Of a stretch of 64,000 nt of DNA, positions 1,369-59,649 are shown piece after piece. A model generated the notes under the pieces. That model was given only the letters and a program-made list of their open reading frames with translations, did not search any database and was not told where the DNA came from. This stretch comes from a virus (Duplodnaviria; Caudoviricetes). The stretch lies in IMG/VR virus record IMGVR_UViG_3300028591_000076, positions 1 to 64,000 of that record. The stretch is one strand, 5' to 3'. The position numbers and the translations under genes are program-made. How positions within the stretch are numbered: the stretch's first letter is position 1; the number at the start of each line of letters is the position of its first letter.

Positions 1369-2666
1369 GTGGGATGTAAGATTACACGAGACTGGAGTCT
1401 CGACCAAGGTAAAGCAGAATACTTAATGTTAACTGCCGACTTTGGTTCCTTACAATGATTCTTATGCGTTTAACTACCCAGGATACTTTTATGAACCCAT
1501 CAACTTTGGGTCACTGTGATCCTGGTTTATATGATATTTATAGGGCCGACACTGAATGTGCTGATGCCCATTCTAATACTGGCCGAATTGTCTTTGTTGA
1601 TTCTATTGGTGGCCAATTGTATGTATATACAATGGATGATGGCTCTAAGATTAAGCTATATCAAGATACTAAAATTCCTTACTTGAATAACAAGCTATCA
1701 CAAGACGTTCAGACTGGTGATATTCTGGAAGGGAAAAAAGTAGTTAGTATAGAACATCGTTCAATGACTACAAAAGAGTTTAAGTCTTTTACGAAAGATG
1801 GTTATATTGAAAAATACCAGGATAAACGTTTTGCTGGATGGCGACGTGCTTCTAAGACTGTAAACTTTGCTACACTCTTTGGCGCGACTGCGCCTACCAT
1901 GGCTAAGCAGCTTGAGAATGCTGGTTATAAAGAAGCAGAAGCGGAAGAATATATTGAGCTTACAAATAATACTGTAAGGTATAATGAGAAGCTTATTCAG
2001 ATGCGCGGTAAAATGACACCTCAGAAAGTTAAGTTTTTAGTAGCTGCAGAATTGATGCTCGAAGCTTATTATAATGGTTTCCCGGGTGTTAAAGAGAGAG
2101 CTCTGAGAGAGAAGCTTTTTGCTTGGAAAATGGGTTATTCTAGAATGTGGCATGGTCCTGTAAAGCATCTTCCAGAGCTTAAGTATATGGCAAGAAATGC
2201 TAAAGGTGAGCTAGTTGGAGCAGATAAGAAAATGTGGTCTTCAATGTTTAGTAACTTAAACAATGAAGCTGGAAATGCGCCAATTCAGTGTATGGAAGCG
2301 AATATTGCTATTAAGACTATTATAAATGTTTGTAAGTATGCTAAAGAGTGGAACTTAAAGTCTTATCTGTGGAACATGGTCCACGATTCGGAGGACTGGT
2401 GCGTTTGGAAACCAGAGCTTAATTTGGTTTGCGCATTATTAAATGCGTGTTCAACTTGGAAAAGAAACCCACATTTTGGTATTGATATGTGTATGGATTT
2501 TTCAATTTGTGATCCTTCTAAGGGATTTCAGAATAATATGTACCACGGTGGCCTAGAAAATCCATTTAAGATTGATAAAATAGAAGATGCCGTTGAAAAA
2601 TGGAATAAAGCACATGAAAATATTCCAGATTTTAAGCCTATTTCTTGGCATGGATGTGTTTGTTAG
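1369..2666 (+). CDS. polA: family A DNA polymerase, C-terminal (palm/fingers) part of a split gene; frame break at 1456-1463 in motif A
   Basis: GGAGGAGG + GTG(1369) opens 29 codons ending YLMLTADFGSLQ-TGA; ORF 1455..2666 continues MRL, DAHSNTG, motif B RRASKTVNFATLFG, NAPIQ, motif C VHDS. Confidence 0.85.
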
Positions 2667-14618: not shown

Positions 14619-15338
14619 TTTTTTGTCCTTTATAGCTAATCGACTCTAACTCACTAATCACTTCATCTAATTTAAGAATTTTATGAGTATAATCAAGACA
14701 TACATTATAATAATCTCTTATATCCACTTTTTTATTTGGATATGCTATTTTAGCTTCTGGTGGTTCAAGACCATTTTTTCTGTATGCTCTTGCTTCCATT
14801 GCCCAATTTTCTAGATCCTTACAATGATATAACTCATCGATACAGGTATTATGTGTATGGCCATAGATTACTTTAAAAGGCGAATTTTTTCCAATATAAA
14901 CAGGCTCATGACAAAGAATATATTTATCCTCAATAATAATTGGATGATCATAAACTTTATCAAAACCAAGCTCGGTAAAAAATTGAATAAGAGACTTATT
15001 CCTTATACCTAAAGTTTTAAGAATAGTTCTATCATGATTACCTAATACGAGATTAAGTGTTCTCTTTACTCCTTTCATTCTACTTACATATGACTTTAAG
15101 CAATTTATACCAGCATCAGCTAACATTTTTGAAAAGAATACATCACCTAAATTCCAAATTATAGTATTATTATCATCAGGCAAGTTATCAAAGAGTTTAA
15201 GAATATCTTCGTTCATTCTAAAGATTTCTTCTCTCTTTGTATAATCATATGGTCTATTACAATATTTTATGATATTTGCATGAAAAAAGTGCTTACCTAA
15301 TGTAAGTCAGAAATAATATATTCATTTCTAACCGCCAT
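14608..15338 (-). CDS. calcineurin-like metallophosphoesterase, interrupted by an 11-nt gap (15289-15299); about 239 aa if the gap is skipped
   Basis: AGGAGG-ATG(15338) MAVRNEYIISDLH-TAG, then FFHANIIKYCNRPY in the frame of ORF 14608..15216 with LGD, GNHD, CHEP, GHTH motifs. Confidence 0.9.
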
Positions 15339-57957: not shown

Positions 57958-58778
57958 CTAGTCATCCGTAGGAATTACTTTTTCAATATATTCCTTATCT
58001 TGAGTAAAAATTGGAATTTCCTCATCGATTTCCCACCGTGAGCGATTTATTTTTTCATCAAATACATGAATTACACAAGAACCCCGTTTTTCTACAGTCT
58101 TACGGTCATTCCAGTTAATATTCTTTTCTTCATGAAGTTTATCTTGAAGCTGTGAATTATTTAAGCCCTGTATTTGCTTCTGTGAAAAATTCGCTTGAGC
58201 AAGTCCCTGAATTGAATTACGAGTTGCATCATTCTGACGCCAAATGAAATAATTAACAATTTCATTTTCTGGAATATTAAATGCTCTAGCATCAAAATAT
58301 CCACCTAATTCAGTTTTCTTTAAAAGGACATTTTTGTAAAAACGTTCATCTTCATCTTCACGAAAATTATCCTCAACTCTTTCTTTATAGAACTTCTCTA
58401 CCAAGTCTGCCCAATTCTTATTAAAGTACATTGTGGCCATTGACGCAGCGACAGAACAAATTTTCTGAACAGAATAATCAAACCATGCATCGGTCTGTAA
58501 ACTATCATAGTCAGTCAAAAGTAATGAAATTTCGTCAGACTCTACATATCCTATCTTACATCCTTGAATATGCTCACAAAGGTCCTTAGTAGTTAATTGC
58601 ATTACTTCAATAAAAAGTGGGTCATAAGGTTTTCTTAAACCCTTACAAAAACTATGAAAATGACCTAATGACACCCGTCAATACGAATAATGACGGGTGT
58701 CCTACGAGTTAAATATGTCTTAGAGCGGTTTTCGTAGAAATCCTTCATACGATCCCCGAGTGAGTCTCTTACAGCCAT
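57958..58778 (-). CDS. thg1: tRNA(His) guanylyltransferase Thg1/TLP, interrupted by an 8-nt gap (58660-58667); about 270 aa if the gap is skipped
   Basis: AGGAGG-ATG(58778) MAVRDSLGDRMKDFYE...TPVIIRIDGCH-TAG, then FHSFCKGLRKPYD, YVESDEISL, FDARAF, YFIWRQNDATRNS in another frame. Confidence 0.93.
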
Positions 58779-58813
58779 AAGAACTCTCCTCCTTATATAA
58801 TCTTATTTATAAT

Positions 58814-58845: not shown

Positions 58846-59649
58846 TTATATATTTTTTCCATTATTCATATAAATAGATTCTCCAGCGTTTACTTCATTA
58901 GCATTTAATGCGCCGGATATCCTAATATCATTATCAGCAGATATTGTCTCAGCTTTTACCGTTCCTTTTACTGTAAGGTCTTGACCAATATTTAAGTCGT
59001 TTCCTTCAACATTACCACCAATGGTTACTTCGTCGTTAGTTTCTATATCTTTTGCTTTAAGATTACCGCCAACATTAAGAGTACTAGTATCTAAATCTCC
59101 AAGTGTAGCATTTCCTGAAACTTCAAATTTGTCATCTACTTGAATATCACCATCTGTTTTTAAATCTCCAGTAACATTTATATTTCCAGATGAACTTATA
59201 TTACCAGTAATACTATCTGCTGTTATAGTTAAATCACCATCACAATCAATATCGCCACAAATATTTTTTGCGGTCAAATTAAATGACTCATCACAGCTAA
59301 TAGAGCCCACACTTCCTTCAACCTGAATATTAAGCTCAGAAATAAATAAGTTCATATCATTATCTTTTTCTTTTTCTATTATAATAGGCTGTGGCTGTTC
59401 TGGTAGAGTAGACTTTTTTGAGTCTTTTTCAAGATTTATTTTATCCGACTCAATCGACACATTATAGTCTTTTAAATGTTTTAAATAAGCAGTAACATTT
59501 TCATTATTCGCATAAATCTTTTCACCATCATAGCTTAATGAGCTAATATTGTCATCAATAGGCACAAGCTCATCTAAGTACTGACCATTTATTTTAATCC
59601 TACCATGAATATCCGATAATGTAAAGTTCTTATTTTTCCAAAATCCCAT
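58846..59649 (-). CDS. beta-helix repeat protein (bactofilin/DUF4097-like)
   Basis: repeating VxGNxxxxDIxxxxxLxV pattern. Confidence 0.65.
   Translation of the reverse strand: MGFWKNKNFTLSDIHGRIKINGQYLDELVPIDDNISSLSYDGEKIYANNENVTAYLKHLKDYNVSIESDKINLEKDSKKSTLPEQPQPIIIEKEKDNDMNLFISELNIQVEGSVGSISCDESFNLTAKNICGDIDCDGDLTITADSITGNISSSGNINVTGDLKTDGDIQVDDKFEVSGNATLGDLDTSTLNVGGNLKAKDIETNDEVTIGGNVEGNDLNIGQDLTVKGTVKAETISADNDIRISGALNANEVNAGESIYMNNGKNI

Follow-up and report, generated by a model that had tools for sequence, protein, structure and literature searches.

The stretch of DNA analysed here (hereafter the window) comprises the first 64 kb of the 239.8-kb IMG/VR virus record IMGVR_UViG_3300028591_000076 (30% G+C), and the subject of this analysis is a gene for a Thg1-like protein (thg1), which lies on its minus strand and is interrupted by a stop codon inside an invariant motif of the catalytic domain. 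The gene starts with the Shine-Dalgarno sequence AGGAGG (58788-58793) and an ATG at 58778, opening the first open reading frame, ORF1 (58668-58778), with 37 Thg1-like codons (M...RIDGCH) that hold the strand with the catalytic Asp of RIDG. The last of them, the His37 codon CAT (58668-58670), is directly followed by TAG (58665-58667), the spacer GT (58664-58663) and a second CAT (58660-58662), after which ORF2 (57958-58659; FHSFCKGL...) continues for 233 codons to a stop at 57960-57958, in the -1 frame relative to ORF1. It encodes the remaining part of the Thg1 catalytic domain, including SDE, plus a Thg1C-like part. Below, the two His codons are referred to as the take-off and landing codons, and the putatively undecoded 8 nt TAG GT CAT (58660-58667) as the gap. 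This layout had been proposed in a sequence-only reading of the window, and our re-reading of the letters agrees with it at all coordinates.

Removal of the 8 nt makes the two pieces colinear with uninterrupted Thg1 proteins, and the earlier claim that skipping them restores RIDGCHFHSF is borne out by several comparisons. Against the Pfam profile Thg1 (PF04446), ORF1 matches positions 2-27 (0.016) and the ORF2 frame, read from its His, positions 27-130 (2.2e-21), so that the two gene pieces abut on one profile column; with RIDG in ORF1 and YVESDE in ORF2, the carboxylates of the Thg1/TLP catalytic domain are all present. The nearest uninterrupted homologues, 89% and 88% identical, read ...VIIRIDGCHFHSFCKGLRKPYDP with zero extra residues, and the motif R.DG.HFH is invariant and free of insertions or deletions (indels) across an alignment of 20 homologues. 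The best solved relative, BtTLP of Bacillus thuringiensis (PDB 4KGK/4KGM; E = 1e-69 via the 89%-identical homologue), is also colinear and indel-free across this motif, which reads RIDGAHFH in it (structure 4KGK); in contrast to the phage gene, its own is uninterrupted. BtTLP is a bacterial-type 3'-5' polymerase acting in the repair of tRNA 5' ends, and the function of the phage enzyme is predicted from its sequence.

The interruption is not confined to the window. A homologue search, in which ORF1 read through its TAG (47 aa) served as the query, revealed at least 10 protein clusters of 33-37 aa, all ending in ...RIDGCH, one of which occurs on at least 24 contigs from pig and other gut metagenomes. 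The DNA of these clusters and of three truncated ORF2 clusters provided 20 interrupted loci with 9 distinct junction alleles in 7 lineages (individual loci are cited by their L numbers). The 8-nt junctions are CAT TAG GT CAT (the window), CAT TAG TT CAT (L013, L007/8), CAT TAG TT CAC (L010), CAT TAG AG CAC (L012, L014-22) and CAT TAG GT CAC (L023); the gap is 7 nt long in L024-26 (CAT TAA G CAT) and 9 nt long, and in frame, in L112 (CAT TAG GTT CAT), so that ORF2 stands in all three frame relations to ORF1. All 9 alleles have a His codon for take-off, a stop and a His codon for landing, and only the 1-3 spacer bases vary. The take-off codon is always CAU; the landing codon is often CAC, and CAC constitutes only 11.5% of the His codons here. 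The stop is TAG in 8 alleles and TAA in the 7-nt one, and TAG terminates just 28 of the 202 long ORFs of this genome.

In each complete interrupted locus ORF2 is open for 216-236 codons. The ratio of nonsynonymous to synonymous substitution rates (dN/dS) among the interrupted alleles is 0.04-0.17 for ORF1 and ORF2 alike, at dS near or above 1, where synonymous sites approach saturation, and in the close pair formed by the window and L013 it equals 0.06 and 0.14 for ORF1 and ORF2, respectively; judged by these ratios, both ORFs are under purifying selection. As to a possible nascent-peptide signal, the peptide LTRR[TS][PA]VIIRIDGCH is invariant among the interrupted alleles, but it is constrained also by the enzyme function and by the stem described below. 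The gap is thus no private GTCATT duplication of the window: in related thg1 genes it recurs, with lengths of 7, 8 or 9 nt, in many independent metagenomes. Pattern scans of IMG/VR and of the GTDB genomes for the gap motif gave no matches, the latter thus offering no hint of the host, and the thg1 relatives present in IMG/VR are merely 33-42% identical and uninterrupted.

Two further observations concern thg1 interruptions of other kinds. The allele L025, otherwise identical to L024 and L026, becomes fully divergent about 27 codons past the landing codon (L025:590-730), which suggests a further insertion inside ORF2 (an intron, a mobile element or a chimeric contig). Several short ORFs with a Thg1 N-terminus, namely P0140, P0145 (...VIIRC), P0143 (...VIIRL), P0142 and P0144, some of them on contigs of 26-203 kb, stop 3-5 codons before the RIDGCH class, so that in further phages the interruption of thg1 may lie elsewhere in the gene.

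The take-off codon of the window is preceded by a hairpin (58670-58701) with a loop of 10 nt and a stem GACACCCGUCA/UGACGGGUGUC of 11 perfect base pairs, in which positions 58701-58691 of the minus strand pair with 58680-58670. The stem has an energy of -20.7 kcal/mol over 36 nt, the fold of a 91-nt segment has a z-score of -4.1, equalled by 0 of 200 shuffles, and among all perfect inverted repeats of at least 11 bp in the 240-kb genome this one has the highest G+C content. It is built with the codons CCC, GUC and GGG, which account for 3.3%, 2.0% and 2.9% of their codon families, and with the protein sequence fixed the chance of this combination is about 2.5e-5. Among sites with at least 30 upstream codons, it is the only combination of take-off codon, stop and landing codon in the whole genome that has a strong 5' hairpin, the next best reaching -11.9 kcal/mol. 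Two other candidate hops on His or Ala codons, at about 122.85 kb and 162.22 kb, were rejected as alternative-frame artefacts inside long ORFs. A search against Rfam gave sub-threshold noise only, no intrinsic terminator was found at the hairpin, and a take-off stem-loop of the gene 60 type is absent from the gap, which is too short for it.

Not all details ascribed to the hairpin by the sequence-only reading survived the comparison with relatives. The letters of the proposed extension, a U-U mismatch followed by 2 more bp and a UUCG loop, are all present in the window; RNAfold, however, keeps the 10-nt loop open, and the loop, UUAUUCGUAU in the window, is UUAUUAGAAU or UUAUCCGCAU in other alleles. 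Since it follows the Ile-Ile-Arg-Ile codons and is not conserved among the alleles, UUCG is incidental, and its likeness to the tetraloop of gene 60 is a coincidence, UUAGAA or UCCGCA taking its place elsewhere. Similarly, the stem does end on the first base of the take-off codon in the window, but the outer 2 bp, including the pair that reaches the take-off C, are held in only 3-4 of the 9 alleles.

The inner 9 bp, on the other hand, pair in all 9 alleles. One of these core pairs reads C-G in three alleles and the reverse, G-C, in the other six, owing to a Pro-to-Ala change (CCN to GCN) combined with a silent change of GGG to GGC, and this swap distinguishes the window even from L013, which is 95% identical to it; another stem pair alternates between C-G and U-G. 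The covariation expected of a selected stem in related phages is thus represented by one compensatory pair. In 84 distinct uninterrupted segments no more than 7 core pairs can form, except for the clade of L011 and L027-29 with 9 of 9, and the same ceiling of 7 holds for the 16 uninterrupted segments that encode the same peptide T[PA]VIIRIDG; counted as distinct segments, 83 of the 84 lack the core hairpin. The stem is not, then, equally common in uninterrupted homologues.

Taken together, these features make a programmed short translational bypass ('stop-hop') by peptidyl-tRNA-His the probable explanation for the structure of this Thg1-like gene. The ribosome would translate the 37 Thg1-like codons and pause with peptidyl-tRNA-His on CAU (58670-58668), the A site being occupied by UAG, a stop that only RF1 recognises. 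Slow termination at UAG would let the peptidyl-tRNA-His unpair from CAU, the mRNA would slide by 8 nt, and the same tRNA-His would re-pair with CAU at 58662-58660 (across the alleles, with CAY 7-9 nt on). Decoding should then restart at UUU (UUY entering the A site) and result in one protein of 270 aa, colinear with the uninterrupted Thg1-like proteins. As to the hairpin, it would be melted by the ribosome, its 3' arm (-10 to +1) lying inside the ribosome and its 5' arm and loop having already emerged, and its re-zipping at the mRNA exit could pull the message forward by approximately the length of the stem. Pairing of the exiting mRNA has been proposed as a forward driver in T4 gene 60 (10.1101/2024.12.09.627546). 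We infer the hop itself, as well as the pulling role of the hairpin and the protective role of the gap considered below, from sequence and analogy. Since the matched His codons are kept with gaps of 7, 8 and 9 nt and in all three frames, a single hop mechanism would fit all the alleles. The bypass from CAT to CAT over a stop, aided by a 5' hairpin, had been put forward for the window alone, and it gains from the recurrence of the gap, from the covariation in the stem and from the absence of the stem from all uninterrupted clades except one. Neither the window nor the whole genome contains tRNA genes, hence there is no phage tRNA-His.

Genes of homing endonucleases, which the sequence-only reading did not mention, are found in the neighbourhood of the interrupted thg1. 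In L008, L018 and L024-26 a gene of 248-271 aa lies directly upstream of ORF1; it matches phrog_655, annotated as 'homing endonuclease' (E = 1e-31 to 1e-35), and an HNH PHROG, and in tblastn it is about 31% identical to MobE of T4, with several matches per T4 genome, whereas Pfam gives a weak NUMOD3 match only. It is also found upstream of the uninterrupted thg1 in L005, and it is absent from the window and from four other interrupted lineages. Compared with its clade-mate L014, L018 carries this gene as a clean insert of about 940 nt, bordered by a repeated 24-nt piece of the leader, which offers a simple route to loss of the nuclease.

The position of the gap coincides with the boundaries of recombination. 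In the ORF2 tree interrupted and uninterrupted genes alternate, and the well-supported branches need at least 4-5 changes of state. The pairs window/L005 and L024/L009 are about 50-75% identical upstream and 92-100% identical from exactly the landing codon on, and in the pair L007/L006 the identity jumps 24 nt before the gap. The leader ..UAUAAGGAGGAGAGU.., to which the Shine-Dalgarno sequence of the window belongs, is common to most interrupted alleles and is not found in uninterrupted ones. Because the leader is shared and the breakpoints lie at the gap or within 24 nt of it, the leader, ORF1, hairpin and gap behave as one cassette. This cassette would be of common descent, travel with a Mob-family nuclease gene inserted upstream of thg1 and be able to outlive it; if MobA and gene 60 are taken as the model, the gap probably shields its carrier from the nuclease, the breakpoints at the gap being the one piece of indirect evidence for this, and the window would have kept the gap and lost the nuclease gene. 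A footprint of an 8-bp target-site duplication was rejected, the two 8-mers being alike in the window only. In the window the place upstream of thg1 is occupied by a gene for a 267-aa bactofilin-like/FapA-like beta-solenoid protein (58846-59649, minus strand; Pfam Bactofilin, 4e-8), whose position is kept in several relatives.

The interrupted loci with a nuclease gene show, in this order, the Mob-type nuclease gene, a gene start, about 36 codons and the gap, and T4 mobA/gene 60 is arranged in the same way (the gene 60 bypass and the MobA cassette are reportedly the subject of the work of Huang in 1988 and Bonocora in 2011). The two systems share the matched take-off and landing codons, the UAG right after the take-off codon, the Mob-family HNH nuclease gene directly upstream of the gene start (in several thg1 relatives), the mosaic boundaries at the gap and the survival of the cassette once the nuclease is gone ('hit and run'). 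In T4 the bypass insert protects against nicking by MobA, and it is retained in phages from which the nuclease has been lost (10.1101/2022.08.31.505936, Manning & Atkins preprint); in the same survey of 2022 the gene 60 cassette was still called unique. The differences are as follows. The thg1 gap is 7-9 nt long versus 50, which leaves no room for an in-gap take-off stem-loop or an internal Shine-Dalgarno sequence; the only conserved RNA element of thg1 is the strong hairpin abutting the take-off codon, whereas the 5' stem-loop of gene 60 homologues is not conserved. The codon is His CAU, with CAU or CAC for landing, rather than Gly GGA, and the gene is Thg1-like rather than that of a topoisomerase. 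Finally, thg1 has not been split in two by a homing endonuclease gene, its carriers are AT-rich gut phages, and its hop is a prediction from sequence.

Another system to be compared is that of the terminase genes of the Streptomyces phage phiHau3 and of prophages (Smith 2013; Antonov 2023); for the phiHau3 terminase, mass spectrometry of a UAA variant expressed in E. coli showed a short bypass in the range of 7-10 nt (PMC10732093). In these genes, too, a conserved motif of a phage protein is interrupted by noncoding blocks of 7-10 nt, the indel-free junction serves as the argument, gaps of 7 and 10 nt give different frames, and RNA structure is predicted nearby. Unlike in thg1, where a stop takes this role, the A-site trigger is a rare 'hungry' UUA codon, a proposed sensor of the host tRNA, and the block is present in 3 of 100 genes; the thg1 alleles, in contrast, form a diversified family whose hairpin covaries and which is linked to homing endonucleases. 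As for unprogrammed low-level stop-hopping in E. coli (Weiss 1987 and O'Connor 1989, in the form in which they are cited in 10.1101/2024.12.09.627546), the peptidyl-tRNA likewise detaches from a codon that precedes a stop and pairs again with a cognate one a few nucleotides downstream, and nine nucleotides specify one amino acid, as in the 9-nt allele L112; according to the same source, these are rare errors on synthetic sequences without stimulators, whereas the thg1 site is natural, conserved and equipped with a selected hairpin. The literature searched contained no link between Thg1 and bypassing, the sole co-occurrence being pyrrolysine in archaeal Thg1. The thg1 element seems to work like the gene 60 and phiHau3 sites, yet to differ from them in its very short and variable gap, in the abutting selected hairpin as the only RNA signal, in the use of a stop instead of a hungry codon, and in the host gene.

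Of the other explanations, the one that survives best, unlikely as we find it, is that the gene is dead, the 8 nt being a scar of nuclease traffic or of a slippage insertion, the hairpin and the matched codons being leftovers, and the intact ORF2s being re-supplied by recombination. Recombination between interrupted and uninterrupted alleles is indeed rife, L012 and L027 differ by a clean 8-nt indel, and the interrupted alleles constitute a minority of the clusters. Nevertheless, an ORF1 with a Shine-Dalgarno sequence and an ATG that stays open with dN/dS about 0.1 at dS of at least 1 among the interrupted alleles is not what would be expected of a dead gene, nor is a stem maintained through rare codons and a compensatory change, nor the retention of the stop, take-off and landing codons next to 1-3 variable spacer bases. 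Moreover, a decayed ORF2 was found in no complete interrupted locus, and the interrupted alleles are abundant across many samples.

Conventional recoding, which would differ by allele (a -1 or +2 frameshift for 8 nt, a +1 frameshift for 7 nt and readthrough for 9 nt) and would add 2-3 residues after His37, is very unlikely in our opinion. It would agree with the -1 frame of ORF2 in the window and with the in-frame 9-nt allele, and frameshifting can be modulated by RNA structures. Sister alleles would, however, need different mechanisms, three in all, a -1 shift being of no use to the 7- and 9-nt alleles, and the proteins made would contain extra residues within the invariant, indel-free R.DG.HFH. 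As to frameshifting in particular, the overlap of the frames is only 4 codons (GAC GGG TGT CAT, 12 nt), bounded by TGA in the target frame, there is no X XXY YYZ slippery site in it, and the structure is located 5' of the site, not 3'. Reading TAG as sense in the window leads to TAA after 9 codons in the wrong frame, and a reassignment of this stop codon is contradicted by the 28 long ORFs that use it as a stop.

Even less credit can be given to a two-piece enzyme, in which the 37-aa peptide and a separately initiated ORF2 product would assemble non-covalently, or the product of ORF2 alone, or one starting at Met56, would be functional. The window does have a GTG four codons ahead of the landing codon, and gene callers begin ORF2 of relatives at an internal ATG (MQLT...); but neither a start codon of ORF2 nor a Shine-Dalgarno sequence for it is conserved, and the other alleles have nothing but CTG in this position. 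The protein would be cut within the invariant R.DG.HFH, the Asp of RIDG being parted from the remaining catalytic domain, and the matched His codons and the hairpin would be left unexplained. Finally, an on/off switch at the level of DNA, with the 8 nt gained and lost rapidly by slippage on CAYT repeats or by conversion driven by the homing endonuclease gene and with expression from an uninterrupted subpopulation, is just as improbable: it could account for L012 and L027, whose flanks are about 100% identical and which differ by the clean 8-nt indel and one stem base, and for GTCATT repeated 8 nt apart in the window, but the repeats are just 2-6 nt long and unconserved, most pairs with and without the gap differ by exchange of a whole module rather than by an indel, and the 7- and 9-nt versions are not repeat units.

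Several observations weigh against the programmed bypass as well. The true double change in the stem is limited to one pair, in a set of related alleles, and the shuffle control gave 10 of 500. The uninterrupted clade of L011 and L027-29 keeps the stem without the gap, and therefore the stem is not strictly tied to the gap. On either side of the gap site the identity between this clade and the interrupted L012 is about 100%; the clade differs from L012 by a clean 8-nt deletion (CATTAGAG) and by a GAC-to-GAT change that weakens the stem, and looks like a recent reversion with loss of the gap. In L011 itself (L011:1830-1930), whose contig has low coverage, the uninterrupted thg1 is without a start codon and shows non-conservative changes (ANLSK instead of ENRSK), due to either an assembly error or decay.

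The link with the nuclease is also incomplete. There is no nuclease gene near thg1 in the window, and the rest of the genome contains only weak HNH-motif matches, far away. The nuclease gene accompanies 3 of the 7 interrupted lineages versus 1 of about 66 uninterrupted loci; when the loci with enough flank are counted, Fisher p = 0.07. In L005 a Mob-like nuclease gene (L005:1159-1941) lies between a bactofilin-like gene and an uninterrupted thg1 of the 'RRSNV' type that has no gap; protection of this locus, if there is any, must come from substitutions. Furthermore, frequent recombination brings in ORF2 from uninterrupted alleles, and part of the selection signal in ORF2 may predate the junction. 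Lastly, the 3' arm of the hairpin would sit inside the ribosome at take-off, and the role suggested for the hairpin is argued by analogy.

If the programmed bypass is accepted, a broader proposal may be offered, tentatively and with more doubt than confidence. One strong hairpin next to the take-off codon, followed by a stop and, after 7-9 nt, by a matched codon, might be a minimal module sufficient for an efficient hop, which could spread with Mob-type nucleases as an immunity device; the efficiency of the hop may, in addition, vary with the state of tRNA-His, which belongs to the class of substrates of Thg1 enzymes, thus closing a feedback loop. The idea of feedback comes from the fact that both clear gaps, those in thg1 and in a metallophosphoesterase gene of the window, leave from CAU-UAG and land on a His codon.

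In the latter gene (15289-15338, minus strand) a 13-codon leader ..ISDLH, ending in CAT, is followed by TAG GTAAG and then by CAC TTT TTT CAT..., which gives a gap of 11 nt; pairing of CUUAC with GUAAG around the stop is possible, the match of the downstream frame to Pfam Metallophos begins only at profile position 16, and no relatives of this gene were found in IMG/VR. Another break in the window (1369-1475, plus strand) affects motif A of PolA, where ...GAC TTT GGT TCC TTA CAA TGA is followed by TTCTT ATG CGT TTA, with no obvious matched landing codon; possibly the gene is split and has an ATG of its own.

Views on efficient programmed bypassing have long been based on one natural paradigm, T4 gene 60 with its homologues, the Streptomyces terminase being a second, sparse case. 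The interrupted thg1 genes, which gene callers now split or truncate, with consequences for annotation, provide a natural allele series in one gene, comprising gaps of 7, 8 and 9 nt, CAU and CAC landings, UAG and UAA stops, stems that range from 9 to 11 bp and include a compensatory variant, gap-less revertants, and loci with and without the nuclease. This series makes it testable whether pairing of the mRNA that exits the ribosome drives forward sliding, and whether bypass gaps arise as shields against homing endonucleases.

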